A DNA stretch of 64,000 nucleotides. Origin: an uncultured virus (IMG/VR IMGVR_UViG_3300011211_000002) (lineage: Duplodnaviria > Heunggongvirae > Uroviricota > Caudoviricetes). Within the stretch, counting starts at the first letter, position 1; each line of letters starts with the position of its first letter. The stretch is from the IMG/VR virus record IMGVR_UViG_3300011211_000002; one strand, 5' to 3'. The notes beneath the pieces were generated by a model. The model searched no databases. It saw only the letters and a program-made list of their open reading frames with translations, and had not been told where the DNA came from. A program made the translations under genes and the position numbers. Positions 2,954 to 63,832 of this stretch are shown here, piece by piece.

Positions 2954-3008
2954 CTTTAAATTCCTCTTTTCTCTTTTTATAGATATTTTTATAAAATCAA
3001 AATATTAT

Positions 3009-3623
3009 TTAATTATCCAAAAGTATTTTAGTTAATTTCTTCACTACTTCTTCAGTTAAATCATCTAACTTAGTGAAACTCATGTCTTTATTCAATAGTT
3101 TAGACTTTCTTAAAACTTCACTTACTTCAATAATAGCTCCTGCAATTTGATTCAATGTAATTTCAGTAGAACTTCCTACATCCAAGACCTTTTTCTTTAA
3201 TTTGCTTGATACTTCATTCCATTGTTCATTTAAAATGATCGTAACTCCTTGCTTATCAATTGTTTCATCCCATTTATATTTACTCATATCGATTACAACT
3301 GACTCACCGTTTACAATCAAATCTTTTAATTTTTGGTATTCAGTAACTAATGAGTCAATGTAAGGTTTGTTAAATAACCTACATTCGATTTCTAGTGTAT
3401 TGTTTTTAATTAAGCGATCAATCTCAAATAAACTTATTAACTCTTTAGTAACTCGATCTGCTCCTACCTTATTATCAGAGTGAACTGTATGAATTTGGAG
3501 TTCTTCTCTTAATTTAAGTTCTGCATTATTAATGACAGACAAAGCCAATTCTTTAAATTCATTAATTTCCTTATCATACTTCGTTGTTAAATAAGCGTTA
3601 TAAGCGTTTTGTAAAATTGTCAT
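3009..3623 (-). CDS. Hypothetical protein bounded by boundary elements
   Basis: ORF track; elements at 2991 and 3662. Confidence 0.7.
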   Translation of the reverse strand: MTILQNAYNAYLTTKYDKEINEFKELALSVINNAELKLREELQIHTVHSDNKVGADRVTKELISLFEIDRLIKNNTLEIECRLFNKPYIDSLVTEYQKLKDLIVNGESVVIDMSKYKWDETIDKQGVTIILNEQWNEVSSKLKKKVLDVGSSTEITLNQIAGAIIEVSEVLRKSKLLNKDMSFTKLDDLTEEVVKKLTKILLDN

Positions 3624-3675
3624 AAATATATCCCCACTCTTTTTATATTTTTGTTATTTAAATAATATTGTCATA

Positions 3676-4161
3676 TTATTTGTCAAATAACTCTAATTCA
3701 AAGCTATTACCATCATCATCTGTCTTAATTCTAAACACATGAGTATAAAAACTTAATTCTTCATTACTTGATTCAAAATCTAATCCACTCACCAATTCTG
3801 ATTTATTAATAATCACCTTGAAATCATGAGAAATTTCACCATTACCGTTATAAAACTCTCCTTCTGCAATCAATTTAAACTTTTTAATGTTACTTGAATG
3901 ATGTAACGGTTTAAATACAATCTTTGTTGATTGGGAAGATATCTCTTTTTCAAAATCTGTTTTACTCTCACTAGGGTTTACTTCACCTAATGCCTTGATT
4001 AAATCGATATTAAAATCAACCACTTCAATCGCAAAATAAGACTCCCCTTTTGAATTATGTACTAATTTGCCTTTTACTGCCTTATCTAGCTTTGTTATAA
4101 ATTTCCCTTCAATATCAAAAACTTTTAAATCCAATACGTTTGCTAAAAATAATGATGTCAT
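3676..4161 (-). CDS. Hypothetical protein
   Basis: ORF track, GAGGAG RBS. Confidence 0.75.
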   Translation of the reverse strand: MTSLFLANVLDLKVFDIEGKFITKLDKAVKGKLVHNSKGESYFAIEVVDFNIDLIKALGEVNPSESKTDFEKEISSQSTKIVFKPLHHSSNIKKFKLIAEGEFYNGNGEISHDFKVIINKSELVSGLDFESSNEELSFYTHVFRIKTDDDGNSFELELFDK

Positions 4162-4192
4162 AAATTTATTCTCCTCTAGCGTAAGTCGCCAC

Positions 4193-4357
4193 CTATTTTA
4201 TTTTTGTACTATCGTATGACAAGTGAATCTTGATCCAGTAGTAGGATTCTTTTGCTTCTTTATGATCCATTATCATCAAATTATGTATTCCTGTTTTAAA
4301 TAGACAGTATAGGTGCTTCCAATCTTGCTTATCAAAACCAAGTATTCGTTTTATCAT
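4193..4357 (-). CDS. Small hypothetical protein
   Basis: Likely start MIKRILG adjacent to upstream stop. Confidence 0.55.
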   Translation of the reverse strand: MIKRILGFDKQDWKHLYCLFKTGIHNLMIMDHKEAKESYYWIKIHLSYDSTKIK

Positions 4358-4358
4358 A

Positions 4359-4727
4359 TTAATTAATAACTGCCCATAGCATATATCCGAAATATACAAT
4401 TGTTAAGAATCGTGAGAAGTAAGAATAAAATCCAATTTTCTCTTTCATCTTTCGTTTTTTACCTGTGATTCGTGAAAATAAAATTAATAACATAGCTACT
4501 AAAAATTCAACAATGTATAATCCTAACATTGTATATGTTGGGTATAGATATGTATCATGTTTTAAAGCAAAGAATAGATAAACAAGTTCACCTAACATAT
4601 ACGTTAACCCAAATGTCATATACAGACATCCTGCACCTACTAAATCTTTATCTTCAATTTCTCCTTTTTCTTTTCTTGCATTACTGGACGTAATACTTCT
4701 ACGGTAAATACAGCTAATGCCCACCAA
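4359..4727 (-). CDS. Hypothetical membrane protein (start uncertain, possible 5' frameshift)
   Basis: Three hydrophobic segments. Confidence 0.6.
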   Translation of the reverse strand: MVGISCIYRRSITSSNARKEKGEIEDKDLVGAGCLYMTFGLTYMLGELVYLFFALKHDTYLYPTYTMLGLYIVEFLVAMLLILFSRITGKKRKMKEKIGFYSYFSRFLTIVYFGYMLWAVIN

Positions 4728-4767
4728 ATAATCATTACGATTGTGAAAAATAACATCTATTCATCTC

Positions 4768-4992: not shown

Positions 4993-5472
4993 TTATGCAT
5001 TTTTAATATCAACTATTCTATCCACCTTAAATTTATCTAACTCTGACTTCTGATCATCATTTAAAGTCATTCCGTACTTCAATGCAGTTAGTAAAGATTC
5101 TGACATATATTCTTCCTTTGCATAAGGCGAATAATTAACAATCCATTCAGACTCTTCATCATCAATAATAAATTTGATACGAGTCACTTTTATAGGATTG
5201 TTACTTTCTTCATTGATAGCTTCCATGATATTGAATCCTAATTTGATTAATTCCGATTCACTTAATTTAGTGCCTTTTTCGATATTGAAATCTCTAACAC
5301 TTCCTGAGCTTATTGTGTATGTAGGTTTCACATAATCAGTCATGCCAATAAATTGATTGTCTGGAATATATCCTTCTAATTCTGGAATGTTAACCTTAGT
5401 AATATCGCATAAAACACCTAAATCATGTATCCCTATTGTTTTTCCTTTAAAGTTTTTTACATATTCTCGCAT
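4993..5472 (-). CDS. Hypothetical protein
   Basis: ORF track. Confidence 0.65.
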   Translation of the reverse strand: MREYVKNFKGKTIGIHDLGVLCDITKVNIPELEGYIPDNQFIGMTDYVKPTYTISSGSVRDFNIEKGTKLSESELIKLGFNIMEAINEESNNPIKVTRIKFIIDDEESEWIVNYSPYAKEEYMSESLLTALKYGMTLNDDQKSELDKFKVDRIVDIKNA

Positions 5473-5745: not shown

Positions 5746-5785
5746 TCTCCTTTTTATATTTATTTTAATAATACTAATCTTTTAT

Positions 5786-6178: not shown

Positions 6179-6208
6179 CCCTTTTTATAATAGTGTGATT
6201 TTATTTAA

Positions 6209-7147: not shown

Positions 7148-7191
7148 TTAATTCCTCCTAATATTTCATTTAATATGCGTGTTTTATTTAA

Positions 7192-7563: not shown

Positions 7564-7832
7564 CCTCTTTTTATGTATTTTTAAATAAAAGATGAATTTT
7601 ATTTAATTATTTTAAGTTTTATAGTGATTTTGAAAAATCACTCCTTTTTCGTTCATTTCTTCATATTCTCCGATTTCAATATCTAAGTCATATTCTATAT
7701 AATTTTATTTCTACATACCCTGTTCTTTTCACATGTAGATGCTAATACAATGGAATTTGAATAAATAGTTCCATTCATAAATGAAATTTCTATATACTTC
7801 TAGGTTATTCATAGTCAATCACCTTTAGTTGT

Positions 7833-8582: not shown

Positions 8583-8633
8583 GAGATCACTCCTGCTTCA
8601 TATTCATTTAAATAATAGGTTTCTTTTATTTAA

Positions 8634-9020: not shown

Positions 9021-9077
9021 TCTCCTTTTAATAATATTTAATTTTTATTTAAATTATTTTATGTATTTAATTATTTA

Positions 9078-12000
9078 TTAAGCCTTTTTAGTAAGTTCCC
9101 ATGCTGATAGCCAGTTCTGCATAACATCAGTTGATGTCCATTTACCGTTCAGCAATTGTTGCTTAGGTTTACGATCAACTTTTAACACTTTTATTAAATC
9201 TCCTTTAATTAAAAGTGGATTGCCTTTATTATCAGTGAATAATTTTTTATTAACTTTAACCTCTACCTCACTACCATTGTTAATAATGTGTAGCTTTATG
9301 GTTGGTGAATAACGAGTTTCTATATCTGAAATTACAGCAAACGATTTGTCGAAAGCCTCATCTACACTTTGCGGATACCCTAGTACCTCAACTTCAAACA
9401 TTATTTTTTCATTGATCGAATAGTCATTGATATTAATTAAAGTTGAAATAAACTCCTGTATCTCTTCAATCCTTTTAGATTTTGTATTGTCTTTATGAGT
9501 TTTCTTATATCGATCATTGAATTTTTTTGCTATTAACTCTAAGTATCGGCTATTACCAAACTCACTAAAGAACCCTAATCGAATAAGAATATTGAGTTGT
9601 CTAGTATTAACGGATGTATTTTCTGTTATATCAATTAACAACTCTAAGAAATCTGTATGTTTTTTTGATTGTGCTAACTCAAATAGTTCTTCAGATATAT
9701 TATCATTAATGTATTTGATTGATTTTAATCCTTTATATATAGACTTATCACTACTACTATATTCATACTTAGACTTTGATTTTCCAAACTTTATTGGCTT
9801 AATTTTAATTCCTCTTTGTTTAGCATAAGCAATTACTTTTGCACTCTTATCCATCTTATCTTCACGTACATTTAGTATGGTTGTTATAAATTCATGTGGA
9901 TAATGGTATCTTAAATACGCACATACATAACCAATAAAGGAATATGGTTGAGAGTGGTTTAGAGAAAATCCGTAATCTGAAGCATCCTCGATTACCTTTA
10001 AGAAGCTCTGTAGTATTTCTTCTGACTTTTCAATTGTTTCACCATACTGAGATGTCATTATTTCTAAAAATCCTTCTCTGATCTTTGGCAGAAACTGTTC
10101 TGTTCCCTCTTTCTTACTTAACCCACGCCTAACACTGTCAGATTCAGAACCTGAGTGATTACAGAAATCAGTTAAGAATCGCATAATGTCTTCTTGGAAA
10201 ACTAAATAGCCTAAGTTTGATTTAAGGAATTCATTTAATGATGCGTGTCCATTATCATTTGTAATACCATTAGACAGTTTACTTCTGTAAGAATCACCTG
10301 CTGGTCTTATTGCACCGTTAGCTAAACTTAGCAGGCTAATATAATCAATTTCACCAATGTCACTCTTTATATTCGATAATGTCTTGTCACTAAATAGCTG
10401 TTGCACATAATCAAACGCAGTATCCGATTCAAATTGGAACACACCAAGAGTAGAGTCACGAAGCGATCTCCAAACATTTAAATCATTTACATCGATATTA
10501 TCTGGTGTAAGCCGTTCAATATTAGCTAATTTACAAGTCTCATTTATTATCTCGATATTATCAAGACCTAAAATATCTAGTTTTACGTATGATTGACCGT
10601 CTAACTCCTTCATATTAATTGAAGTTACCTTATATTTACTCTCTTTTGTATAAATAGTTGATATATTGCTGTTCAAGTCAATAGGAGAAACTACAAATCC
10701 TGATGGATGGCTACCCATTGAAACAATAGTGCCTTCTAACAAATCAACATAGTCAAACAACTCTTTGTACCTACTTCGATATCTATCTAATGTGTTGCTA
10801 TCTACAGCTTTAGATATTTCATCAACTTCATTTAGAGGAATGTTTAAAGCACGAGACACATCTCGAATAGCCCCTTTAGTTGCTATAGTATTAAATGTGA
10901 TAATTTCTGCAAAATCAATACCATCAATAGATGCTAAATAATCTATAACGTCTTGCCTACGTGATGGCTCAAAATCGACATCAATATCAGGCATGGAAAC
11001 TCGATCTGGATTTAAGAAACGGAAGAAGTTTAAGTTGTGCTTAACACTATCCATTTCAGTAACACCTAACAAGTAAGCAATCAATGATCCATTTACAGAA
11101 CCACGACCGTATCCTTGATAAATATCATTTTCATGACACCATTCAATAATGTTAGTCTGCAACAGCATGTAATCAACTGCATCTAGCTTTTCATATGTAT
11201 CAAATTCTTCATGTACACGGTCTAAGTACACCTTTTTCTCTTCTCTAGGCAACTTATTAAACCCACGCTTTACAAATCCATCGTTTATTTTACTTTTAAA
11301 CACTTCAATTGGATTTTCATATAACTTAGGATACTTAGGTTTTCTATCTAATTCAAAAACATCTATCATATTTGACATCACATTTGTATTTTCAATAGCC
11401 TCTAAATATTCATTACGTGATAAAGCACCTTGAATTTCAAACATCTCTACTAGTTCATCAAATGATTTCATTGTTAAGTCAAATTGATCTTCATCACCAT
11501 AGCTAGCACCCTTTGCTTTAAGAAGCGTTTCACGACCTTTTGCATGAACTTTATCCAAACAGTGTGTGTCTGTTCCTGCTATCAAAGGTATTCCTGTCTC
11601 TTTAGATAGTTGTGATAACATTTGATTAAATTTAACTTGCTCTGGATGCGTATGATATTGCACCTCAAAAAACATTCTATGTTTATTCTGAATGAACCAT
11701 TGCATTAACTCTTCGTATTCAATATGCAAATTGCCTTCTTTAACTACTTTGTTTCCACCTATAATTTCATATGCATTGTTATATAATCTCCAAATAGGTG
11801 AAGCTAAGCAAGCAGATGTCATAATGATGTTATCAGATGTACTCTTTAAATCATCAAATGTTAAACGTGGGTTGTAATAGAAATGTCCATCTTCACGATT
11901 AAAGGATTTTGAAGTCAAATCATTTAATTCTTTTACACCTTCATAGTTCTTAGCAATAGTCATAAAATGATAATTATCACGTTGAAGGATCAACTTATCT

Positions 12001-12263: not shown

Positions 12264-12276
12264 GTTATAACCTCCA

Positions 12277-14997: not shown

Positions 14998-15014
14998 CTC
15001 AATTACACATAAAG

Positions 15015-17224: not shown

Positions 17225-17229
17225 ATGTA

Positions 17230-19453: not shown

Positions 19454-19672
19454 ATTAATAAATCTCTCCATTTCAATTATGTATTTTATCATTTAACTAT
19501 CGAACCAATCACAATGTACCTAACCAAAATCTAAATAATATTAGGATTTTATTGAGAACATTTGATGAGTTTAGAACATGTGTTATTTTACATTTACCTA
19601 TAATTAGTTAAATTTTAATTATTTACATCGCTCATGGTTCGATAGTTTGTCTAGCCTATGTATTATAGCATT

Positions 19673-22025: not shown

Positions 22026-22057
22026 ATTTATTTAATTTTATAAAATGTGATTTTTAA

Positions 22058-22496: not shown

Positions 22497-22550
22497 TCTA
22501 TATCACTCTCCTTTTTTTTAATAAAACTGAAATATTATTTAGTTTTTAAC

Positions 22551-22889: not shown

Positions 22890-22919
22890 CCTTATAATTT
22901 TATAAAAGCAGAATATTAT

Positions 22920-23699: not shown

Positions 23700-23759
23700 A
23701 CAGTACCCTCCTAAGTTTTAAATAATACGTGTATTTTATTGAGTTTAATTTATGTATTT

Positions 23760-23867: not shown

Positions 23868-23900
23868 ATTCACCTCATTTCAATAAAATCGTACTATTAT

Positions 23901-24161: not shown

Positions 24162-24197
24162 CGAATTACATCTCTCCTTTTTCATAAAAGTGAATTA

Positions 24198-24491
24198 TTA
24201 TTTAATATTCCATTGTTTAAGATTGCTTGTATCAAAGTAGTTCCATTTAGTATTACTCAACATCAAATCTAACGTATATTTAGATTCTTCCTCTGTCATA
24301 TTTGGATTAACTTTCATCCATGTATCAATTAGTAAATTGTTATCTGTCTGGTGCAGCATAGCCATTTTACGAATCATGAGTAACTCTTTATCACTAAATT
24401 TCAACTTAATATTGGTCTTAGCTGTGTTTATCAACTTCATAGCAATATCTCTAATTCTATTTTCCTCAGAATAAGTGAATTTATAACTCAT
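24198..24491 (-). CDS. Hypothetical protein
   Basis: ORF track. Confidence 0.65.
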   Translation of the reverse strand: MSYKFTYSEENRIRDIAMKLINTAKTNIKLKFSDKELLMIRKMAMLHQTDNNLLIDTWMKVNPNMTEEESKYTLDLMLSNTKWNYFDTSNLKQWNIK

Positions 24492-25033: not shown

Positions 25034-25064
25034 ATTTCTTATAATATAATTCTTTTATCTAATT

Positions 25065-26133: not shown

Positions 26134-26153
26134 ATTTATATAAAATTCCACTA

Positions 26154-26615
26154 TTATTCAATAATCCGTAACGGTATTCCGAAATGCAGTTCTAATTCTT
26201 TCATTGTCATTTCTAAAGGTTTCATGTTTTCATTTGTAACTACTTCAAATTCGTCCCATATGAAATCTGTTAGATCAAATGGATAGTCTGTAATATGTCC
26301 ATTTTCTAATTTACATAAGGTACGATTACATTGTGGATTGAAATAAATGTACTGTACATCATAAGTCTTACTATTACCGATTCCACACACGGCAACTTCA
26401 TTAACTTCTTTACCAATAGGGATTTCAAGCTTAGTAAATTTATTATTGAAATACTCATTGTTGGGTGTAAATTTACTGTATTCGTAATTTCCATCCAAAT
26501 AAGTTACTTTAATTATAGGTGCATCTGTCAATATTTTTAAAGTTCGATTCTTTGGTCTGATTTTCTTACCTTCTTTTAACCATTGAATCACTTGAGTAAT
26601 ATCTTGTTTTATCAT
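26154..26615 (-). CDS. Hypothetical protein
   Basis: Start MIKQD behind GGAGAG. Confidence 0.65.
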   Translation of the reverse strand: MIKQDITQVIQWLKEGKKIRPKNRTLKILTDAPIIKVTYLDGNYEYSKFTPNNEYFNNKFTKLEIPIGKEVNEVAVCGIGNSKTYDVQYIYFNPQCNRTLCKLENGHITDYPFDLTDFIWDEFEVVTNENMKPLEMTMKELELHFGIPLRIIE

Positions 26616-26664
26616 ATTTAAATAACTCTCCTTTTTAATTAATAGAGTGGTTTTATTAAATATC

Positions 26665-27692: not shown

Positions 27693-28110
27693 TTCTCCTC
27701 ATTATGTATATGTATTTTAAAATCCTACGTATTTCATTAATATCTGGAATGGACGATAATCATTAGATATGTACTTCATATTACTCCCTACTTGCCATCC
27801 ATTCTTATTGCATTCTATAATGTTTTCATGCAGCTCAATTTCATTACTTGCTTTAACAATCTTCTTTCCGTTAAATTTATTAAACTTCATATTTTTATCC
27901 TCTTTTATGTATAATTTTAATAATATCTATATATTATGTATTTATTATTATTTAACTTCTCTTACTACATATTCACTTATCATGTACTTGGTATAACAAA
28001 TCGAATCACAATATAAATTTGCACCATCTATAAGATATTCATCTTCTCTTGTTAACTCATTTGAACAATCCTTATTCGCACAACATCCAATTACATTGAT
28101 ATCGTGATAC

Positions 28111-33348: not shown

Positions 33349-33378
33349 ATTTTATTAATATATTCCTTTTATCAAAGG

Positions 33379-33966: not shown

Positions 33967-33999
33967 AATTTCCGCTCTCCTTCCTTGATTTTATAATAC

Positions 34000-34203
34000 T
34001 TACCTTTTATTTAAAGCCTGACGTGCTACGATATAACAATTATCTAGATACTTAGATATTCCATCATGCTTTGATAGTTCAAAGATCTCTTTTAATGCTT
34101 CACGTAGACGTTTATTTTCTTGTTGTAGTATTTCAATTTCATCTATAAAGTCTCCTGCTACTTGTTCGGCAGCAGAATGTTGCATATAGCTTAATTCATC
34201 CAT
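34000..34203 (-). CDS. Hypothetical protein
   Basis: ORF track; 3' end reads into element at 33993. Confidence 0.6.
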   Translation of the reverse strand: MDELSYMQHSAAEQVAGDFIDEIEILQQENKRLREALKEIFELSKHDGISKYLDNCYIVARQALNKR

Positions 34204-34411: not shown

Positions 34412-34451
34412 ATTTTCTACTCCTAATTATGCATTTAATAATATTTAGTTT

Positions 34452-34655
34452 TTATTTAATGTGACTAGGTTTACTATTTAATAATTCATACATTGTAGGT
34501 GGTACAATCCCATCTTTTTCATCCTTGAAAAATATTTGACCGTCTTTTACTTCAAATTCACTAAGAATTTTATTTCCTCGACCACCATTCAGAGAGTATT
34601 CGCCTTCTTCTAAATACTGTAGTCCCAAAAATAATCCTTTACCCATTAGTATCAT
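34452..34655 (-). CDS. Hypothetical protein
   Basis: ORF track. Confidence 0.6.
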   Translation of the reverse strand: MILMGKGLFLGLQYLEEGEYSLNGGRGNKILSEFEVKDGQIFFKDEKDGIVPPTMYELLNSKPSHIK

Positions 34656-35302: not shown

Positions 35303-35503
35303 TCAAATCCCCTTTCATAATATATCTCTTTTATTCAACTTTCTTTGATATAGTCAATCAATTTTGCTGTATAAATATAACCCTTAAAGATCACTCGTTG
35401 AATGTCTGCAACTTTATAATCTGGTTTTCTTTCCATAATCAATTTAGCCTTTTCAACTTCTTCATCAGTAAATGTATGTTTCAAATTAATTCTCCTTCCT
35501 GTG

Positions 35504-36285: not shown

Positions 36286-36335
36286 TAGTTAGCTCCTCCT
36301 CATTTCTCAATAATACATCTGTTTTATGTAATTAT

Positions 36336-37063: not shown

Positions 37064-37143
37064 CTTCTGTTATCCCCTTCTTTTTATAATAGACGGCTTT
37101 TATTTAACTTTTTTTTCTTATTTTCATTTAGATAAACCCCTTA

Positions 37144-37908: not shown

Positions 37909-37947
37909 ACCTATTCCTCCCTTTGTTTTATAAAATGCGACTATTAT

Positions 37948-38367: not shown

Positions 38368-38406
38368 CCTCCTCTTTTATGCATTTTCTTTTATAAAATG
38401 AAAATA

Positions 38407-38673
38407 TTATTTAACTGGTCTTGCATCAAGACTTTCATTTCTTATTGCTTCGTAATATTTCATCACATATGGTTCTATAACATGAGCACCTTTTTTATGT
38501 AAATTTGAATATACATAGTCATATACTTCATACAGCTTATCATCTATTTTAATAATACTACCTACTATTAATGTTTTTCTGCCAGAACCAAACTCTGGAA
38601 TATTCAATTCATAGGCTTGTAATACTGTGTTGTCATCTATTATTTCTCCTTTTTTAATTAAATTAAATAACAT
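38407..38673 (-). CDS. Hypothetical protein
   Basis: ORF track. Confidence 0.65.
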   Translation of the reverse strand: MLFNLIKKGEIIDDNTVLQAYELNIPEFGSGRKTLIVGSIIKIDDKLYEVYDYVYSNLHKKGAHVIEPYVMKYYEAIRNESLDARPVK

Positions 38674-38964: not shown

Positions 38965-38998
38965 ACCTCCTGTTGAATTATTTTATAAAAGCGTTCTA

Positions 38999-39226
38999 TT
39001 ATTGAATTTCTACTATTTCAGCCTTAGTAACATAAGTTGATTCTTTTAAGATCTTAATAACTGCATTCTCTGCTCGTTTACGTGATTTATATATTTTTGC
39101 TAACCTTAAATCTTCGGTATGAGTGGGTACTGCAACCCCATCGAGCGAGAAAATAGAAATTCTTCCTGCATAATAACCTTCAATATCACCAGAGTTCACT
39201 GGAATAATTTTAACTACAAATGACAT
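38999..39226 (-). CDS. Hypothetical protein
   Basis: ORF track. Confidence 0.65.
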   Translation of the reverse strand: MSFVVKIIPVNSGDIEGYYAGRISIFSLDGVAVPTHTEDLRLAKIYKSRKRAENAVIKILKESTYVTKAEIVEIQ

Positions 39227-39263
39227 TCAAATCTCTCCTTTTCATTTTATTAAAATCGTTATT

Positions 39264-39599
39264 TTATTCAAACCAACTATTATCAATTTTTACCTCAGAA
39301 TAAACAGTATCTAGAGCGAACTGTAATACTTCTTTTGGAACAGCATTTATAATGTCGCGTCTTACTGCTTTTAAACGTTCTACACCTTTAATATATCTGT
39401 ACTCATTATTCATTTGATCAATAAACTTATAATTCCTATTCTTGTTTGCAGCAACTCCCACTTTATCAACAGTAAATGTTAATCCTTTTAAACTCATTCG
39501 AACATCGATATATCTTAGTTTACCATCAATTTTAGTTTTAACTTCTACACTGTAGTACCCCGATCCTTGATAAATATCTACAACTTCCATTGTTGTCAT
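39264..39599 (-). CDS. Hypothetical protein
   Basis: ORF track, GGAGG RBS. Confidence 0.7.
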   Translation of the reverse strand: MTTMEVVDIYQGSGYYSVEVKTKIDGKLRYIDVRMSLKGLTFTVDKVGVAANKNRNYKFIDQMNNEYRYIKGVERLKAVRRDIINAVPKEVLQFALDTVYSEVKIDNSWFE

Positions 39600-39640
39600 T
39601 TATCATTCCTCCTCTAATTTTGATAATATCAACTTTTTAT

Positions 39641-40283: not shown

Positions 40284-40325
40284 TTCATCATTCTCCTTTC
40301 ATCATATCGAATTATTATTTAATTG

Positions 40326-40595: not shown

Positions 40596-40688
40596 CCATA
40601 CATCACTATTAGATTTAATTTGGAAAGTTTAACTATATACATATTTTATTGCCTCCATTTCAATAATGTACGAATATTATCCAATTGT

Positions 40689-41551: not shown

Positions 41552-41712
41552 ACCTCCTGTAAACATATGATTACAAATAGTGTATCAGAGAATTTTATAA
41601 AAGGGAAATATTATCTAATACTATAATAATCCTGTACAGGAAAATTTTAATAGATTCTTACTTTTTATTTGATATACTTACAATGTAACTATTTACTAGG
41701 AGGATTCAGGTA

Positions 41713-44107: not shown

Positions 44108-44167
44108 TAGAAATTTCATGTAAATTTTCATGGATGTTCTAGGTAATAAATAATATTCTCATTTTAC

Positions 44168-44905: not shown

Positions 44906-45091
44906 TTATAATAGGCTCGTTTTATTAAAATCAATCAATTTTGGTTTATACTTCAATTCGTCTTCATTTATAATCAATGCTGTATTTTCTGGGATGTAGT
45001 GTGATGATATTAAATTATCAGGCTTAAACTTTAGTTTGGTTACAATAGTCTCATATGTTGAGTTATTAACATACACATTTTTACCCTCCAC
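44906..45091 (-). CDS. Small hypothetical protein
   Basis: ORF track; reads through element at 44908. Confidence 0.55.
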   Translation of the reverse strand: MEGKNVYVNNSTYETIVTKLKFKPDNLISSHYIPENTALIINEDELKYKPKLIDFNKTSLL

Positions 45092-47205: not shown

Positions 47206-47379
47206 TGAATACCTCCTAAAAGAACATGTGTATAATCCAATGATATACCTGATACCTAATTAATTACAAGAAATAGATATTTTTGTATGATTACCTACCT
47301 AAGTATATTTAGTCATACAGAAGCTTTAGATTATTACTGAATAAGTATCATTACATTTTTTATAAAAATCCAATATTAT

Positions 47380-47556: not shown

Positions 47557-47637
47557 GTTTCCTTACCTTCTTTACTAAATAATTTGTTTTTCTTTTACTG
47601 AACAATATCTTTCAATTAAATAATAAGTCTCTTTCAT

Positions 47638-47961: not shown

Positions 47962-47995
47962 ATCACAACTCTCCTTTTATAAAAGTTTAGTATTA

Positions 47996-48133
47996 TTAAA
48001 TGTCAACGTACATGTTTTTATGGAAAACTTCTAACTCACCTTCTAATAGAAGATGTTCGATGTGTTCTTCTGCTTGTGTCAAACTAAAACCATGTGTCAT
48101 TAGATAATCAATTACTTCATCTCTCATATCCAT
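47996..48133 (-). CDS. 45-aa hypothetical protein (not in ORF track)
   Basis: MDMRDEVIDYLMTHGFS...YVDI; lies between elements at 47979 and 48165. Confidence 0.55.
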   Translation of the reverse strand: MDMRDEVIDYLMTHGFSLTQAEEHIEHLLLEGELEVFHKNMYVDI

Positions 48134-48178
48134 TTCAACACCACCTATATATGTATTTTATTTAATAAAAGCATGATA

Positions 48179-48403
48179 TTACTTAAACACTGACTTAATG
48201 TACTTATAAAAATTGATTACCAATTCAATTATTATTTTAATTAAAAATCCTATTAACAAAGCAAATATGAGTATCCCATAAGATAAGCCAATTTTTTGAA
48301 CCATACTTGAATCTGTATATAGATAAACACAAGCCAATATCATCATTCCGATAACAGCTATTCCAATTGTATCTTCATGAAATATTCTATTTAATACCTT
48401 CAA
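48179..48403 (-). CDS. Small two-TM membrane protein
   Basis: Two hydrophobic segments. Confidence 0.6.
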   Translation of the reverse strand: MKVLNRIFHEDTIGIAVIGMMILACVYLYTDSSMVQKIGLSYGILIFALLIGFLIKIIIELVINFYKYIKSVFK

Positions 48404-48439
48404 CTTATCACTTCCTTAATTTTAAATAATATATTGGTT

Positions 48440-48637
48440 TCATTTAATTACTGTTTTATATGCTTCAGCTAAATGTCGTTGCTGCCCTTCTGAATATGTA
48501 GGATTGAACTCGTTTGCAACTTGTTCTAATCTTCCTGCAATATCAATTAGAAAATTAATATCTTGATAATTGATCTCGTGCATTAGTCCGTTCTCTGATA
48601 ACCCTTTTATGTATTTAATTCTTTCTTGTTCATTCAT
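48440..48637 (-). CDS. Hypothetical protein
   Basis: ORF track, GGAGTG RBS. Confidence 0.6.
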   Translation of the reverse strand: MNEQERIKYIKGLSENGLMHEINYQDINFLIDIAGRLEQVANEFNPTYSEGQQRHLAEAYKTVIK

Positions 48638-49653: not shown

Positions 49654-49714
49654 TTATTATTATGTATTTTATAAAACAAATATATTATTTAATACTGACT
49701 TATCCCTCTTCCCA

Positions 49715-49921: not shown

Positions 49922-50004
49922 TTTAAAAACTCCTTTTTTATATTACATTAACAGCCTAAAGTGCTTTATGCAATACTTTTAAACATTTTTATAAAACGTG
50001 ACTA

Positions 50005-50280
50005 TTATATAAATTGACCTTTATATTCGTTATAGTCATCTAGATAATTTTTGCATATATTATAAATTGCATAGTGACTTTCTGGACAAAAGTCTAAATG
50101 TAAAAGATCACATCTTTGTTTTATTTCTTCAATTTTATCTAATTCATTACATAGTCTATCGAATTTATCTGACAACGTTGGTGAATTTAGCACCCTCCTG
50201 TACTCCTCTTTTATTGAGCAATATACTTCCATAAATCTATATTCATATATCCTAAGATTTTTTATATCCGTAAATTTCAA
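50005..50280 (-). CDS. Hypothetical protein
   Basis: ORF track; elements at 49991 and 50304. Confidence 0.65.
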   Translation of the reverse strand: MKFTDIKNLRIYEYRFMEVYCSIKEEYRRVLNSPTLSDKFDRLCNELDKIEEIKQRCDLLHLDFCPESHYAIYNICKNYLDDYNEYKGQFI

Positions 50281-50317
50281 AGAACCATCTCCTTTTCATT
50301 TTAATAATAGAATCATA

Positions 50318-50503
50318 TTATTTATTTTTTACATTAAACTTATGACATAGATTTTCTAATTCTCTAATTACATCTACACCTCTGTCGTAAAGTAATGAGC
50401 TTATCCTAGCGACTTCTCCTATTTGATAGCTACCCATAGCATGATACTCGACAGATTCATCAATTTTATTTTGATCTTCACTGAACAATATTTTCCGTTC
50501 CAT
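50318..50503 (-). CDS. Hypothetical protein
   Basis: ORF track. Confidence 0.6.
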   Translation of the reverse strand: MERKILFSEDQNKIDESVEYHAMGSYQIGEVARISSLLYDRGVDVIRELENLCHKFNVKNK

Positions 50504-50829: not shown

Positions 50830-51037
50830 TTATTCATTCTCCTCATCTTCAAGTTTAATTTCATTTATGAAATACATGTCAGATAAGTATTCATTCAACT
50901 CGTCTACATACTCTTTAGCATTTTCTTCGCTCTTAAAATATTTATTTAATGAAGACGACCCACTACCCATAAACCCTTTACTTCTTATTTCATAAATCAT
51001 ATTTCATTCCTCCTCAACTTTTCATAAAACTCCTCTT

Positions 51038-51226
51038 TTAACTAGCTTTAATTACTTCTTGATTTTCTACAGCATAACTACTTCCACGATCCTTTAACTG
51101 CCCTATCATAATGTCTTTACTTTTAAACATTTTTTGTCCTTCTGATCTAGCGTCTATTTTGCTATAAAATGTTTCATGTACCCATTCAATATCGTTTGCT
51201 TCTGTGAAAGTCCACTGATTATGCAT
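51038..51226 (-). CDS. Hypothetical protein
   Basis: ORF track, GGAGG RBS. Confidence 0.65.
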   Translation of the reverse strand: MHNQWTFTEANDIEWVHETFYSKIDARSEGQKMFKSKDIMIGQLKDRGSSYAVENQEVIKAS

Positions 51227-53093: not shown

Positions 53094-53141
53094 AATTCTC
53101 CTTTTTATAATACGAATCTTTTATATAACCATTAAATTTTG

Positions 53142-53921: not shown

Positions 53922-53961
53922 TAAATCTCCCCTTTTTTCATTTTATAATATAAGCACTTTA

Positions 53962-54228
53962 TTAAATTCTTTTAGGTTGTTCATTCCATAGCGTCAGCTC
54001 ATCGCTTGGTATTTCACTAAAATCATTTGGCAAATCTCCACCATATTCATCTACATAATTGTCCGTTACTTCATAGGTAGCAAATGAACCATCTAATTCT
54101 TTTTCATTGATCAAACTTAAAAACGCTAAATTACTTATGTTATGTCCTGCTGTATAGATTTTGTCATTAAAATACAACCATGCATAATCTCCTCGTTCCG
54201 CATACACTAATTTAATCTGCGTCATCAT
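53962..54228 (-). CDS. Hypothetical protein
   Basis: ORF track. Confidence 0.65.
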   Translation of the reverse strand: MMTQIKLVYAERGDYAWLYFNDKIYTAGHNISNLAFLSLINEKELDGSFATYEVTDNYVDEYGGDLPNDFSEIPSDELTLWNEQPKRI

Positions 54229-54257
54229 TATCTCTCCTTCTATATAAAATGAACATA

Positions 54258-54770
54258 TTAATCAATTTTTAACATTACGGTTACATTCTCGTTCACACCA
54301 AAATGATATGTATATTTATATCCTCGAATATCCCATTTATCTTTTGAATCTTTGTATGTTACTTTTACAAATGTATATTTATTTATCTTATCGAATTCAA
54401 CCATGACCATTTTAAAGAAAACCTCATTAACATCCTTACGATCTAATGCCCTACCTACATTTCTTGCTTTAGAATTAAATTTTGTAAAGTACTCAATGGC
54501 TCTATATGGATCAATATATTCTTCTCGATTTACATAATCAGCAATAATTACGTATGCATCATTGCTATAGCTGCTTTTACATAAGCGTCTATAAATATCT
54601 TTTGAAAGCAACTTTGCAACATATTCTGGGGTCGCTTTTTTCTTCAATCGTCTATATTTATATTTCTCGAATTTATCAATCGCCCATGCTAACGGATGCA
54701 TGATTTTGTAATATGTATTGAGCGATTTTGATTTAAAATTTTTTATCTTCTTGTATGTTGACGGCTTCAA
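54258..54770 (-). CDS. Hypothetical basic protein
   Basis: ORF track. Confidence 0.7.
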   Translation of the reverse strand: MKPSTYKKIKNFKSKSLNTYYKIMHPLAWAIDKFEKYKYRRLKKKATPEYVAKLLSKDIYRRLCKSSYSNDAYVIIADYVNREEYIDPYRAIEYFTKFNSKARNVGRALDRKDVNEVFFKMVMVEFDKINKYTFVKVTYKDSKDKWDIRGYKYTYHFGVNENVTVMLKID

Positions 54771-54819
54771 TTAATCACTCCTTTTCATTTTATGTATTTG
54801 TTTGAATAATAAATCACTT

Positions 54820-55200
54820 TTATTTAAATATAGATGTTAAACCAATGATATAGTCTGTCTTTGTAATAAATACTTGGTATTCTTCTGTGTGAGTATAATC
54901 GTCGTCAGAACTCATATCCAATTCATTATTATCGCCATCTAATTTAACTTTTCTTTTTAATTCCCAACCATTTTCATTTTCTGTACAATCAAACTGTCTA
55001 ATTGCACAATGAATTGATTCTAGTCGTTTTAATACAGTTTCTTTTAATTCGTTTTTATTCCTAATGTGAATCTCTTCACCCAAATAAACTGTAATGTCGC
55101 TTATTAGTCTATAATAATATGAATCATTGCCGTTCTTGTCTTTATATATCTCTCTTATATCTGCATAGTACGCTCCTATATATGCTTTTTCTCCATACAT
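54820..55200 (-). CDS. Hypothetical protein
   Basis: ORF track; elements at 54806 and 55220. Confidence 0.7.
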   Translation of the reverse strand: MYGEKAYIGAYYADIREIYKDKNGNDSYYYRLISDITVYLGEEIHIRNKNELKETVLKRLESIHCAIRQFDCTENENGWELKRKVKLDGDNNELDMSSDDDYTHTEEYQVFITKTDYIIGLTSIFK

Positions 55201-55249
55201 ATTTTTCGTCTCCTCTTCTATAATATTCAGTTTTTATTTAATCCTATAT

Positions 55250-55726: not shown

Positions 55727-56078
55727 CTACATCGTCTCCTACCTTTCGATAATATCTATCTTTTATGTAATTTTTAAAATAGAATCCAATTGTTTTGAAC
55801 TGTATTAAACTCTTTCTTGACACTTTATATATCAATTTAACTTAAGCTCTCTATTAATTAATAGCGCCTTAATTCATTAGTAAAGCCAAATGCAATTATT
55901 ATATAAGTTCAATTACCAGTATCGTTAAAGCGAATCACCATTAAAGGTTGCATAAATCTTTGTATATAAAGAATAAGATATTAAGATACATAATATACAG
56001 TATTTACGATTTATAATTTCACCTTTTCAGGTAAAATTCCAATCGTGAAAATTTTCCTCTTCTATCTTCCTTCACTAT

Positions 56079-57023: not shown

Positions 57024-57076
57024 ATTATCACCTCATCTTCTTTGCAATTTTAAATTTAATAATAGATGTGTTTTAT

Positions 57077-57289: not shown

Positions 57290-57350
57290 CCTTTCAATAA
57301 TAGTTCTATTTTATCTACTGATAGCAACACCTTTAACAAACTACAATCAT

Positions 57351-58032: not shown

Positions 58033-58062
58033 CCTCGTTTTACCTTTAATAATAACTTCATT

Positions 58063-58590
58063 TTATTTACGCAAACCATCTATTACTCTTTTGTGGTACT
58101 CAATATCCTCTTCCTCTACATCAAATACAACTTTCTGATCAACATATTCGTCAAATAATGAAGAATCAAACTTTTCACTCCATCCTATTAAAAACACCTT
58201 TTTACATCCCTTATCAAAGATATTTGTTATTGACTTCGTATTTACGCCCTTTTGATTAATCATCGAGTCTATAGGATAAATGATTGTGTAATCTAGTTTG
58301 TTAGGCGAGTTCTTCCATGTCTTACTATCAATAGAGTCGAAATAAATATCATTAGAACCAAATTCATAAGGAGTACCAGTTTTAAAGTTATTACTGGCAT
58401 TTAAAAATGTATCTAAATTTTTAAGTGTATTTGCTCTGAAAAGAATATTTTTATGTTCAGCCTCATTTCCTAAAATAGAAAGTACCAACTTATGCTTTTC
58501 ATACATATGTGTACCCGTTAACAATAAACACCTTCTATCAGAATTAATAAAATCTATTATCTGTTCTTTTGCTTTTTTTCTAGTATTCAT
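58063..58590 (-). CDS. Hypothetical protein (degenerate P-loop-like start)
   Basis: CLLLTGTHMYEKH. Confidence 0.65.
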   Translation of the reverse strand: MNTRKKAKEQIIDFINSDRRCLLLTGTHMYEKHKLVLSILGNEAEHKNILFRANTLKNLDTFLNASNNFKTGTPYEFGSNDIYFDSIDSKTWKNSPNKLDYTIIYPIDSMINQKGVNTKSITNIFDKGCKKVFLIGWSEKFDSSLFDEYVDQKVVFDVEEEDIEYHKRVIDGLRK

Positions 58591-58926: not shown

Positions 58927-58983
58927 AATTCACCTTCTTCTATTACCCAGATTAGTAAAATATTTTTTTTATTTTCACTTAAA

Positions 58984-59160: not shown

Positions 59161-59226
59161 TATTATTCCTCTTTTCATTTTAATTTTAACTGCTATACAT
59201 AAATAATAGACTTCCATTATCTAATC

Positions 59227-60496: not shown

Positions 60497-60592
60497 AAGT
60501 ATATTCCTCCTAAGTTTTATAAAATGCTGATTTTATGTAAGAGTAGTATCACTCTTTGTAATTCTCATAAAGTTCACAATTCAATTTCCGTT

Positions 60593-60838: not shown

Positions 60839-60987
60839 TTAAACTACGCCTCTTTTCACTTATAATCTCTTCATAAAATTATACTTTTATAGATCAATTT
60901 TACTTGATGCTCAAATGGTATACAACTTCCAATTATAATACTAATCACAATTATAATCAGTTGCTGCCTCCATGTATACTTAACCTG

Positions 60988-61033
60988 ATATTACCATACG
61001 CATAAAAATAAAGTCAAATACAATTATGTATTT
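60988..61033 (-). promoter_or_regulatory. Sigma-A promoter at head of the leftward gene array, with AAATACATAA
   Basis: TTGACT-18-TAATAT with TG; motif at 61024-61033. Confidence 0.65.
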
Positions 61034-61238: not shown

Positions 61239-61336
61239 TAGATTTCATTTTTCATTCAACCAGTTTAATTCTTGCTACATAAATCGATTTCTAAAAATGA
61301 ACACAACAATACATCCTAATTTATTTTTTCATGTAT

Positions 61337-61663
61337 TTAGTTAGCTAACAACTTCATGTATCCCTTTTGCAGCTCTTTCATTTGATCTTTATAATAATCA
61401 ACTTCTTCTTTTGTATAACTTAGAGTAAATAATGTAGGAACTTCAATTTCCATATCTGAATTATTAACTGAGATCTCATAACGAGCGAAATCATATTTAT
61501 CCACTAATTCAAAACCATATTCTTTATTTATATTGTTAATACATTCTTCTCTTACCTCCTTACTCATTTGTAGTAGTGCGCCGTACACTTCATACTTATT
61601 ATAACTAACCCCAATATTACAATCCGTAGCATTATTAACAACTAATTTTAATTGATTCATCAT
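61337..61663 (-). CDS. Hypothetical protein
   Basis: ORF track. Confidence 0.65.
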   Translation of the reverse strand: MMNQLKLVVNNATDCNIGVSYNKYEVYGALLQMSKEVREECINNINKEYGFELVDKYDFARYEISVNNSDMEIEVPTLFTLSYTKEEVDYYKDQMKELQKGYMKLLAN

Positions 61664-62505
61664 TTTTATATCCCCTTTATTATTTTAAGTATTTATTCAT
61701 ATAAATTATATCACAACAACTTAACTTGTTTCTTTGTAAGATTAGATCATTTTAATATCAATATTCAAATTTTCAATAAATAATTACATTATTATGTATT
61801 TTATATTTTAATCAACTTAAGAATAATCGAGTTAAGATACCTATAACCTTACTCTAAGTAGATAACTGGAACTTTTACTAAAATATATCTTACTTGTAAG
61901 CTATAAGTAAATTATACATAAGATACAAGTAAGATACAATAGTTTTTTAAATTTAATTTTGTATAATTTGGAAGTATTAATTATTCTTGACTATTCCCGT
62001 CTTTCTTATCAATTGATTTTTGAAAAGGAGTTTTGTTGTTTTGAGTTTTAGATGAATAGTTCTAACTAATAAATTGATCGAACATATTATTGATTATGAG
62101 GTAAGATTTATTAGTTAGAACTTTAACGGCTTTTTCAATTGTAATTATTTAAATACCTATTATATTTAGCACTACTTTAACATTTGACTGTTACAATTAG
62201 CTCTAATTGTTCTTACTCATCCGTTTGTAATTAGAATGTCTCAGTGTTATTATTTGTTTCCTGTTACTATATGGGATCATGCTCACCACCCCTCGTCTCA
62301 AATTCATCCCAAAACTCGTAGCAATATTTTCTACACGCTGTTACTATATAGCGATTTGGATACATATTGAATTAAAGTAAGCATTTTTTTGTGAAGTAAC
62401 TTTGTAATTTCTCTATTAATAGGAAGAAACTCAATTCACTTATTAAAAGTTCTTATAAACATTGATATAGGAGCGTCTATGTAGGTAACTAAATTTTATT
62501 TAAAT

Positions 62506-62579
62506 AAATACATAAATTTAGTTGACTAAATCTTCATCGGATGTTATGATAAATTCAAGTTAAACAAATAAATACATAA
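62506..62579 (+). promoter_or_regulatory. Rightward sigma-A promoter flanked by two AAATACATAA motifs
   Basis: TTGACT(62522)-17-TATGAT with TG; motifs at 62506 and 62570. Confidence 0.8.
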
Positions 62580-62602
62580 ATATACTTCAGGAGGAACAAA
62601 TA

Positions 62603-63061
62603 ATGAAACTACAAAATAAAATCAGTGCTCTATCTAATATGAAAGCTAAAGAGTTACAAACAGAGGCAAACAAAGAGGGTTTAACATGGTATAACCGTGA
62701 GGAAAAGCGAAAAATGCATAAAGATGAAATTATTACTTTGTTAACTGAACACTACACAAACTTAATTGAACAGGATCAAAACACAGAATTAGAAATTGAA
62801 AACTCAACGACTGTTCAATTAGTTACACACTTTAAAGAACTAGCTTCCAATGCGATAAATGCAGCTAAAGAAGACTATAACCAAGCAGCACAGCAATTAA
62901 GTAATGTAAAAGAGTTACTATCAGATGCATTAGTGAAGTTGCAAGATAAACTAACAGACAAGAAAAACAAATTACTGGCTCGTAAATGGAACTTAACTAT
63001 TAATAACATTAAATGTATTGTGACTACAGCAGAACGTAAAATAAACGCTGTAGTAGCTTAA
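62603..63061 (+). CDS. Protein with Rho-N/SAP-like N-terminal motif
   Basis: LSNMKAKELQTEANKEGL...KMHKDEIITLL; GGAGG RBS. Confidence 0.65.
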   Translation: MKLQNKISALSNMKAKELQTEANKEGLTWYNREEKRKMHKDEIITLLTEHYTNLIEQDQNTELEIENSTTVQLVTHFKELASNAINAAKEDYNQAAQQLSNVKELLSDALVKLQDKLTDKKNKLLARKWNLTINNIKCIVTTAERKINAVVA

Positions 63062-63099
63062 ATAAAAATACTATTTTATCTAAATTGGAGGAAAAGAAA

Positions 63100-63786
63100 A
63101 TGAAAAATTTTAGAAAACAATTAGGGTATGTATTAGAAAATAAAAATATATGTGTTAATGGTTATACTGAAAATAAAATTTTATTCCAAAACAATGATGG
63201 TAAAATTGATAAACAAAGAAAAGCAACTTTATACACTAATAAGAAAGGTATTTACTTTACTTATGAAAGTAAAAGATATTATGTATTAATTAATAAAGAG
63301 ACGAAATCTAAGTCAATCGACCCTAACTCTATCGAAAGTACAATACTATCTGAAATGATTGGAGACGTTGGAACTTTGATTGCTGGGTTACAAACTACGA
63401 CTAGCAAAAAAACGTTAAAAGAAATAAATAAAGAAAAGTACAAGCCACATTCTAATTTTAGTAAATGGTTAGATAGTTTAGTTAAAACAGAAATAAAAAA
63501 GAAAGTAGAAGAAGAACATAGTAAAGCTATTTCTTTATTACAAATCAATTCAGATTTAATCGGAACAGTTAGAAATAAAGTAAAACAAACTTTCTTAAAG
63601 GTTTTCGGTGCTGAAAATTTAAAATATAAGACAATCAACGTTGACAAGGTTTTCGGTGAAAGTACGGTTACAAAATATTCATTTTTAGCAAAAGAAAACG
63701 GCTTTAATTCTAATGATGTTGATCGACTTGTACAGTCTATTATTTATAGCGTGTTAAAAGAAAACAACCGTTTACAAATTAATTAA
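63100..63786 (+). CDS. Hypothetical protein bounded by boundary elements
   Basis: Start MKNFRK behind GGAGG; elements at 63062 and 63787. Confidence 0.7.
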   Translation: MKNFRKQLGYVLENKNICVNGYTENKILFQNNDGKIDKQRKATLYTNKKGIYFTYESKRYYVLINKETKSKSIDPNSIESTILSEMIGDVGTLIAGLQTTTSKKTLKEINKEKYKPHSNFSKWLDSLVKTEIKKKVEEEHSKAISLLQINSDLIGTVRNKVKQTFLKVFGAENLKYKTINVDKVFGESTVTKYSFLAKENGFNSNDVDRLVQSIIYSVLKENNRLQIN

Positions 63787-63832
63787 ATAAAAACATTATT
63801 TTATAAAATATATAAAATGGAGTGAATGAGGA

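Follow-up and report, generated by a model that had tools for sequence, protein, structure and literature searches.

An ordered array of 26-bp dyads with private centres marks probable gene-exchange boundaries in an SPbeta-like phage group

A 64-kb stretch of DNA from an uncultured virus (IMG/VR record IMGVR_UViG_3300011211_000002), called the window throughout and meaning the whole stretch analysed, raises the question of what purpose is served by a short inverted repeat, ATAAWA-N6-TWTTAT, that recurs between its genes. The window has a G+C content of 27-33%, and its minus strand carries almost all genes up to ~61.7 kb, where transcription diverges. An initial annotation had read the repeats as an integron-like system delimiting cassettes of one or few genes that are shuffled by site-specific recombination. 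Comparison of the window with six relatives showed instead that single genes or small groups of genes are replaced slot by slot between sites of conserved order, and the relatives very probably exchange genome segments at these sites.

The motif occurred in 43 exact copies in the window, compared to a mean of 0.69 and a maximum of 3 in 100 dinucleotide-preserving shuffles, none of which reached 43. The enrichment over shuffled sequence that the initial annotation had anticipated was thus confirmed, and its count of 40 exact copies has to be raised to 43. All 15 positions that it had named as one-mismatch copies were recovered, within a total of 25 rather than about 15.

Relatives were obtained with two queries. 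The window encodes a homologue of the repressor MrpR, and this protein led to two IMG/VR contigs, a 52-kb fragment (G001) and a complete genome of 121.9 kb with terminal repeats (G002), while the 18-mer of the site at 49991..50008 led to four further relatives (G003-G006). The comparison set consists of the early arms of these six relatives and the window, seven genomes altogether. No deposited phage was close to the window at the DNA level, with the region 26000-46000 lacking any near match; the species-genome collection yielded no relative, and the metagenome scan gave the G002 contig alone. Of the 46 exact sites in G002, the early arm on the minus strand has 43 and the late arm the remaining 3. 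The relatives identified most copies in the window as genuine: the same centre was found in at least one of the six for 40 of the 43 exact and 18 of the 25 one-mismatch copies. The remaining one-mismatch matches lie mostly within genes.

Sequence conservation extends beyond the motif, and the full element is a 26-bp dyad, TTnnATAAWA-N6-TWTTATnnAA, consisting of two 10-bp arms around a fixed 6-bp centre. At 80 exact sites with distinct centres the outer positions were T at -4 in 76%, T at -3 in 91%, A at +21 in 95% and A at +22 in 91%. The element is an inverted repeat as initially described, but an imperfect one, since in 35 of the 43 copies one arm is of the ATAAAA type and the other of the ATAATA type. 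These asymmetric sites occur in both orientations relative to transcription in the window (21 versus 14).

Each phage genome carries about 55-60 sites, which are generally one gene apart, with a median gap of 681 bp. Read along the coding strand, a stop codon is followed by the site, a short A-rich linker, the Shine-Dalgarno (SD) sequence and the start codon, which is the layout given in the initial annotation. Placement was counted for the 41 exact sites of the minus-strand arm. In 28 of these an open reading frame of at least 53 codons stops between 15 nt upstream and the site centre, and in 19 of the 28 the stop codon is found directly before the site (-3) or within the left arm (+1). An SD-preceded start follows the site at a distance of 13-38 nt in 32 cases and of 51-81 nt in 3, while none was recognized by these criteria in the other 6. 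The sites had been thought to be absent from the replication block and from about 26660 to 33350; exact sites are, however, present at 19535 and 27920.

Transcribed into RNA, the 26 nt are virtually unfolded (mean -0.81 kcal/mol, shuffled -0.46 kcal/mol), 69% of the sites being weaker than -1. The W positions could pair in 18 of the 80 distinct-centre sites, compared to 39.8 expected, and compensatory changes at the free arm positions, looked for in the same 80 sites, were not found. Promoter-like matches were not in excess (102 versus 130 +/- 12 in shuffles), and neither were terminator-like matches. Because the RNA is unfolded, the W positions avoid pairing, both orientations occur and no promoter excess is seen, we read the element as a duplex-DNA site contacted by two protein subunits, and as neither hairpin nor promoter.

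Each site has its own private 6-bp centre, which can be regarded as an address, and the order of these centres is the same along all seven genomes. Any two genomes had 28-48 colinear identical centres in common, compared to means of 8-11 and a maximum of 15 in order-shuffled lists. Sixty-six centres were found in at least three genomes and 11 in all seven. The DNA between the sites behaves differently: among 792 pairwise comparisons of inter-site segments by blastn or tblastx, 357 showed less than 5% coverage, 260 were partial and 175 homologous. Thirty-three slots have an identical pair of adjacent centres at their ends in four or more of the seven genomes; 27 of them hold at least two and 22 at least three unrelated contents, and the extreme slot has six unrelated contents across six genomes. 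The proposal that the sites delimit units of one or few genes is therefore upheld, and what the comparison reveals is slot-by-slot replacement in a conserved order rather than shuffling.

The sites of the window are listed below with their coordinates and type; the fraction gives the relatives, out of six, having a site with an identical 6-bp centre. No strand is assigned.

2991..3008, exact core, 5/6
3662..3679, exact core, 5/6
5768..5785, exact core, 5/6; both flanks unrelated in G001 and G002
6187..6204, exact core, 5/6; G001 homology begins at the site
7170..7187, one arm mismatch, 3/6; G001 homology stops here
7585..7602, exact core, 5/6
8612..8629, exact core, 5/6
9031..9048, exact core, 5/6
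19535..19552, exact core upstream of the replication genes, 4/6; both flanks conserved in G001 and G002
22040..22057, one arm mismatch, 5/6
22521..22538, exact core, 4/6
22902..22919, exact core, 4/6
23722..23739, exact core, 4/6; edge of a 190-bp block common to G001
23883..23900, exact core, 0/6, one-base variant of the centre in G001; opposite edge of the 190-bp block
24184..24201, exact core, 5/6
25041..25058, exact core, 2/6
26140..26157, exact core, 5/6; homology on one side only in G001 and G002
26639..26656, one arm mismatch, 4/6; followed in G001 by a relative of window gene 55250-55726
27920..27937, exact core, 3/6
33355..33372, one arm mismatch, 2/6; located upstream of the yopP-like gene promoter
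33993..34010, exact core, 5/6
34438..34455, exact core, 6/6
35317..35334, exact core, 6/6
36310..36327, exact core, 4/6; 47-bp identity island with G002
37086..37103, exact core, 4/6
37930..37947, exact core, 2/6
38393..38410, exact core, 0/6, one-base variant of the centre in five; 48-bp identity island with G001
38985..39002, exact core, 5/6
39250..39267, one arm mismatch, 3/6
39623..39640, exact core, 5/6
40301..40318, one arm mismatch, 3/6
40663..40680, one arm mismatch, 4/6
41597..41614, exact core, 6/6
44150..44167, one arm mismatch, 6/6
44908..44925, exact core, 5/6
47362..47379, exact core, 5/6
47620..47637, one arm mismatch, 4/6
47979..47996, exact core, 4/6
48165..48182, one arm mismatch, 6/6
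48426..48443, one arm mismatch, 5/6
49671..49688, exact core, 5/6
49991..50008, exact core, its 18-mer the query for relatives, 6/6
50304..50321, exact core, 6/6
51024..51041, one arm mismatch, 6/6
53107..53124, exact core, 2/6
53945..53962, one arm mismatch, 1/6
54244..54261, one arm mismatch, 3/6
54806..54823, exact core, 3/6
55220..55237, exact core, 5/6
55749..55766, exact core, 5/6
57059..57076, exact core, 6/6
57297..57314, exact core, 6/6
58049..58066, exact core, 5/6
58955..58972, one arm mismatch, 1/6
59203..59220, one arm mismatch, 6/6
60519..60536, exact core, 5/6
60873..60890, exact core, 5/6
63062..63079, exact core between plus-strand genes of the other arm, 2/6
63787..63804, exact core between plus-strand genes of the other arm, 0/6

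Sequence similarity between the genomes breaks at these elements. In pairs with unrelated flanks, per-column identity drops to about 0.3 within 4 nt of the element, and 77 of the 292 ends of blastn alignments between the window and the six relatives fall within 12 nt of a site, in windows that make up 4.5% of the sequence. The position of the break was resolved further by counting arm mismatches in colinear site pairs with the same centre, sorted by the state of their flanks; a pair was classed as having neither flank alignable when ungapped identity did not exceed 45% in either 40-nt flank. The left and right halves of the element had the following numbers of mismatches per pair.

Only upstream flank homologous (n=51): left 0.51, right 1.84
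Only downstream flank homologous (n=39): left 1.51, right 0.26
Neither flank alignable (n=590): left 1.79, right 1.43
Both flanks homologous (n=20): left 0.15, right 0.20

Arm variants thus segregate with their own flank, which implies exchange between the arms, in or beside the centre. It is because addresses in the same order enclose unrelated genes, and because similarity breaks between the arms, that we consider the sites to be the points of exchange; the initial expectation that breakpoints of gene replacement would coincide with them was borne out by the alignments.

Constraint on the centres was assessed on sites paired via the adjacent homologous flank, and not via the centre itself, to avoid circularity. 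Of 367 flank-matched sites, 255 had a site at the mapped place in the partner, and in these 255 pairs the centres matched in an all-or-none manner: at 6/6 positions in 197 pairs, at 5 in 15, at 4 in 8 and at no more than 3 in 35. For the 220 orthologous pairs, the mismatch per base was 2.35% in the centres and 6.3% in the arms (4.6% without the W positions), beside anchoring alignments that were 16.7% divergent. A cruder first conservation test, in which the centres (0.86 identity) were no better conserved than the flanks, had taken in chance one-mismatch matches inside genes. Furthermore, the polarity of each address is kept (AA-AA in 262 pairs, TT-TT in 200, AA-TT in 4).

Similar genes do occur in different slots. 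The five sets inspected, however, were mostly diverged family members with differing leaders, and many cross-slot pairs reflect extra or missing sites, so that cassette shuffling between slots was rejected as mostly unsupported. The best case is window gene 55250-55726, whose relative in G001 stands behind another centre, with similarity extending up to the SD sequence.

The dyad is not confined to the window and its six relatives. The whole genome of SPbeta contains 14 exact dyads compared to 0.52 by chance, the Mammaliicoccus phage phi6255 (41 kb) has 10 compared to 0.63 by chance, and Tsamsa (41 kb) has 12. In these three phages the dyads mostly have the perfectly symmetric form and are again found between stop codon and SD sequence. 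Enrichment over a reversed-pattern control was also obtained for Goe14, Perkons, E3 and Kirov. Homology between SPbeta and Goe14 begins or ends at the dyads at 86073, 86885, 88399, 92393, 99497 and 115043. A filled and an empty state can be compared at 95128, where SPbeta has a single dyad; in Goe14 (27011-28260) this dyad is joined by a degenerate one with another centre, and an extra gene, Goe14_01120, lies between the two. Judged by these matches, the dyad system is present, in a sparser form, in the genetically tractable SPbeta. Besides the dyad, phi6255 has two other intergenic repeats (e.g. at 2215-2320, 2651-2737, 3657-3741 and 5186-5298), one hairpin-like with a TAACAG loop and the other a AATAAAATATAAA box directly before the SD sequence of many genes.

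Candidates for a protein acting on the sites are found within the array itself, where the window encodes a trio known from SPbeta-like phages.

32226-33272, minus strand, YopP-family XerC-like tyrosine recombinase gene, candidate enzyme (Pfam Phage_integrase, E 1.8e-10)
30815-32155, minus strand, YopQ-like gene, 446 aa, between the two recombinase-fold genes (phrog_5732, E 1.4e-67)
29829-30818, minus strand, MrpR (YopR) homologue of the master-repressor family (Pfam MrpR_N_CB, E 4.3e-16; MrpR_C_cat, E 1.6e-09)

Across the six relatives the YopP-like protein is 60-93% and the YopQ-like protein 55-99% identical. In SPbeta, YopP is reported to have a XerC-superfamily domain and YopQ a ParB_N_Srx domain, neither being assigned a function (PMC8612738). 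In an alignment of 21 YopP-family sequences R169, K199, H257, K261, H284 and Y293 were invariant, and the window's protein retains five of the six catalytic signature residues. The family keeps R169, K199, H257, H284 and Y293 down to 33% identity. The family profile matched XerA (5hxy) with E 1.1e-05. Moreover, a YopP-family gene co-occurs with dyad enrichment in 7 of 8 other gene-carrying phages tested and in the window's group. Among four phages without YopP, SPO1, A511 and LIBA6276 were unenriched, and Staphylococcus phage K gave a weak signal (9 and 5 versus 2 and 2). These data suggest the YopP family as the best candidate for an enzyme acting on the sites.

We propose that the best overall explanation is site-specific exchange at addressed 26-bp elements with the YopP-like protein as candidate enzyme, a reading to which we assign a probability of roughly 0.45. 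A pair of protein subunits would bind the two 10-bp arms, and strands would be swapped across the 6-bp centre by conservative site-specific recombination, for which both partners would need an identical centre. It is a tentative claim that strand exchange across the private centre is the work of a dedicated recombinase. Slightly more tentative still is the view that the roughly 55 sites form a natural heterospecific set, in which YopP swaps only sites with the same overlap and thereby whole slots in register, without self-deletion: within one genome, recombination between sites of unlike centres would not take place, and the phage would therefore be spared the loss of its own genes. Any single gene slot could in this way be swapped in register by co-infecting phages or resident prophages. 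The YopP-family XerC-like protein (32226-33272) would be the candidate enzyme and a host Xer enzyme the fallback.

Several observations weigh against this proposal. A near-invariant lysine, Lys260, occupies the position of the second catalytic arginine in the YopP family, a placement confirmed by the alignment to XerA; this replacement leaves the catalytic activity of YopP uncertain. A close relative of YopP (E 4.9e-73) is encoded by Lysinibacillus phage LC76P1, whose tightly packed genome, with hardly any intergenic space, shows no dyad enrichment. Since the phages that have both gene and dyads are all relatives, their co-occurrence may reflect shared ancestry, and together with LC76P1 this weakened the co-occurrence to the point that we rejected it as proof. 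Arms of 10 bp, two positions of which are free, are short for a recombinase. The pair counts stem from seven related genomes and are not independent events, and gene ends without a site are also enriched for alignment ends (79 of 292 in 6.9% of the sequence). The strict placement between stop codon and SD sequence is kept in phages of Lysinibacillus, Bacillus and Mammaliicoccus alike and would fit a function in gene expression as well. Finally, homologous recombination over a short identical patch could yield every pattern observed. The YopP-family gene of LC76P1 (OP172811.1) is split between the ends of the linear record (1-654 and 164909-165307), and the record therefore seems to have been opened inside this gene.

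Homologous recombination of this kind is the main rival, a real possibility that we nevertheless lean against. It would require no dedicated enzyme: the dyad would primarily be the binding site of a regulator or structural protein of the early region, e.g. the ParB-like YopQ, and be conserved on that account, and general or phage-encoded recombination would use the identical patch of ~18-26 bp because it is the sole sequence common to otherwise unrelated neighbouring genes. Junctions at the sites and a conserved order are equally expected on these terms, as is a placement kept across distant phages, and LC76P1 with YopP and without dyads poses no difficulty. A suitable protein may be encoded in the window, where 17230-18369 gave a weak UvsX-like match (E 5.8e-06) and is a candidate of the RecA-fold or Sak4 type, and the annotated SPbeta record calls YorG a Sak4-like annealing protein. 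Relaxed recombination by phage recombinases has been proposed as a source of mosaicism (PMC2327257, PMC3945230), and elements of T4-type phages termed PeSL (promoter-early stem-loop) offer a precedent (PMC2839356). A homology patch needs, however, neither two-fold symmetry nor a fixed 6-bp spacing. It also leaves unexplained why centres mismatch at 2.35% and arms at 6.3%, why the polarity of the addresses is kept, and why crossovers lie between the arms rather than over all 26 bp. Moreover, no regulator is known for the dyad.

The dyad was rejected as an operator of MrpR, and MrpR is unlikely to be the protein that recognizes it. The window's homologue is a full-length match to the solved structures of YopR/MrpR (E 2.4e-16). 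Its identity is only 45-47% in three relatives that have the same sites, so that the dyads are unchanged where the protein has diverged. The SPBRE, the operator of MrpR in SPbeta, has another sequence and sits in promoters. In chromatin affinity purification sequencing, SPbeta MrpR is reported to have given ten peaks, all of them at SPBRE promoters (PMC10516654). SPbeta has 27 forward and 18 reverse dyad matches, compared to these ten peaks, and the element common upstream of the ten MrpR-bound genes differs in sequence from the dyad.

The window contains a separate SPBRE-like motif, AAATACATAA, with 27 occurrences compared to 1.27 expected, always on the coding strand of its arm. Examples are 586-595, 22016-22025, 26124-26133, 33339-33348, 41123-41132, 48703-48712, 51305-51314, 61024-61033 and 61792-61801 on the minus strand, and 62506-62515 and 62570-62579 on the plus strand. 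The motif is placed a few bases before the -35-like hexamer of a sigma-A-type promoter or directly before the SD sequence. Its sequence is similar to one half of the SPBRE of SPbeta, and the MrpR homologue may use it as operator.

An unlikely explanation is that the sites are only operators, roadblocks or silencing sites and that the breaks in similarity are a by-product of selection for recombinants with whole genes. The enrichment of breaks at site-less gene ends is consistent with this, and the dyad symmetry, with about 12 bp between half-site centres, would fit a dimeric DNA-binding protein. Genes for three helix-turn-helix (HTH) proteins, the MrpR homologue and the YopQ-like protein lie in the vicinity. 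Selection acting on random joints would not, however, leave 590 colinear same-centre pairs in which 18 bases, the centre among them, are kept between unrelated genes, nor a fall of identity to about 0.3 within 4 nt of the element. An operator read via its arms would not keep its centre at 2.35% mismatch beside 16.7% divergent DNA. Furthermore, the sites do not coincide with promoters, and too little room is left before the SD sequence for a transcript start; for the same reasons, together with the occurrence of both orientations, a promoter for each gene was rejected.

Very unlikely is an action of the sites in mRNA, as an intercistronic hairpin or a protein-binding signal for processing, stability or translation. 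The sites are transcribed between cistrons directly before the SD sequence, the arms are perfectly complementary in SPbeta, phi6255 and Tsamsa, and the SPbeta record annotates one dyad as a stem-loop. In the window's group, by contrast, the folding data rule out an RNA or single-strand hairpin: the 26-nt RNA is unfolded, the W positions avoid pairing and compensatory changes are lacking at the free positions examined. Because the site occurs in both orientations, the RNA would also differ between sites.

A strict integron-like system, with cassettes that bring their own folded single-stranded site and are excised as circles by an integron-type integrase, is hardly credible despite promoterless co-oriented small genes, imperfect inverted repeats and a tyrosine recombinase gene inside the array, given that the sites are 26 bp long, do not fold and stay with the position and not the gene, in an order kept in seven genomes while contents change, that similar genes in other slots have other flanking centres and bring no site along, that no attI-like primary site or common promoter was seen (no IntI-specific test was run), and that the integrase in the array has only a general Phage_integrase match, with XerA as its nearest solved relative. 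The "integron-like" label of the initial annotation does not fit in detail.

The closest known kinds of system are the pdif-bounded dif modules and the PeSL cassettes of T4-type phages. Dif-type sites have two inverted arms round a variable 6-bp centre, with the inner parts of the arms conserved and the outer parts looser, and in Acinetobacter plasmids small gene modules bounded by pdif sites recur in different contexts, recombination being presumed for most, as described in PMC6449649. The window dyad has the same layout of arms round a centre (arms of ~11 bp and a centre of 6-8 bp in the Xer/dif class). It differs in the number and spacing of sites, about 55-60 per genome and usually one gene apart, in 10-bp arms nearly identical to each other, in private centres whose order is fixed across phages with replacement slot by slot, and in a candidate enzyme that is phage-encoded and has a lysine at the second arginine position.

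PeSL are intergenic repeats in variable regions that mark insertions, deletions and replacements, according to PMC2839356, and the dyads likewise mark junctions of insertion, deletion and replacement between related phages. PeSL, however, combine a strong promoter with a terminator hairpin and recombine by homology into mini-circles, whereas the window dyads are neither promoters nor hairpins, differ among themselves in the centre and pair by position between genomes. The SPBRE is similarly a repeated intergenic element of the same phage family, read by a protein of tyrosine-recombinase fold that has a homologue in the window; it is located in about ten SPbeta promoters, while the dyads have another sequence and lie between stop codon and SD sequence.

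Integron attC sites resemble the dyads in being imperfect inverted repeats, in separating genes of one orientation that mostly lack promoters, and in having a tyrosine recombinase nearby. They are longer, act as folded single strands and travel with the cassette, whereas the window sites are unfolded and fixed to positions. Heterospecific lox or FRT sites have the same arms and different spacers, and as only equal spacers recombine, they allow segment exchange without deletions. Such sets are man-made and comprise few sites, and the window sites are proposed to work in that way. We know of no description of a natural array of some 55 heterospecific sites. No prior description of the dyad in SPbeta-like phages was found in literature searched by term, with subscription journals not covered, which agrees with the statement to this effect in the initial annotation.

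Phage mosaicism has been attributed either to special linker sequences that guide exchange or to random joints filtered by selection. Here the junctions are non-random, falling in a defined 26-bp element whose centre is better kept than the surrounding genes. As the same dyad is found at the breaks in homology between SPbeta and Goe14, the idea is directly testable in Bacillus subtilis. If an enzyme is involved, this would give a role to YopP, a core gene of the family, explain the fast turnover of accessory genes including those for defence and counter-defence, and provide a ready set of orthogonal sites for phage engineering. Should the sites indeed be heterospecific, they would constitute a dedicated machine for modular evolution that is sparser in SPbeta. 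Even without an enzyme this would be, to our knowledge, the clearest case of conserved boundary sequences steering modular exchange.

Annotation of the window with Pfam and PHROGs identified a DNA polymerase III alpha gene at 9078-12263, a RecJ-like exonuclease, a primase, a DnaB-like helicase, a ligase, a sigma-like protein and the three HTH regulators, in addition to the YopP-like, YopQ-like and MrpR trio. Identity of the polymerase to its counterparts in large Bacillus and Lysinibacillus siphoviruses does not exceed 59%. The host of the window phage is probably a Lysinibacillus, because the source records of relatives of the YopP-like protein name Lysinibacillus species.

The replication module at 9078-19492 (polymerase, RecJ-like protein, primase, helicase and three more) has 87-99% protein identity to G003 and G005, with the exception of the polymerase, which is only 69% identical in G003. 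In G001, G002 and G006 the module is swapped for unrelated or 21-33% identical versions. This implies that essential modules also exist as alternative alleles. The edge of this module carries a pair of paralogous genes for HNH endonucleases on the minus strand, at 19673-20332 and 20665-21324 (phrog_3377, E about 1e-50 for either), one on each side of a DUF1064 gene at 20250-20678. The two endonuclease genes are absent or only 34% identical in the six relatives.

In one slot, the gene at 44168-44887 (minus strand) encodes a protein of metallo-beta-lactamase fold that matches the anti-Pycsar Apyc1 family (PF23023, E 7.3e-15, 55.5 bits, cut-off 50), and its product is a candidate counter-defence protein. 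An AAA ATPase gene adjoins a DUF6414 gene at 45287-47205 (minus strand), and an oppositely oriented gene with an Abi_C domain is found at 48746-49603 (plus strand). The AAA ATPase, DUF6414 and Abi_C genes have no relatives in the six other phages, and they look like defence or exclusion cargo.

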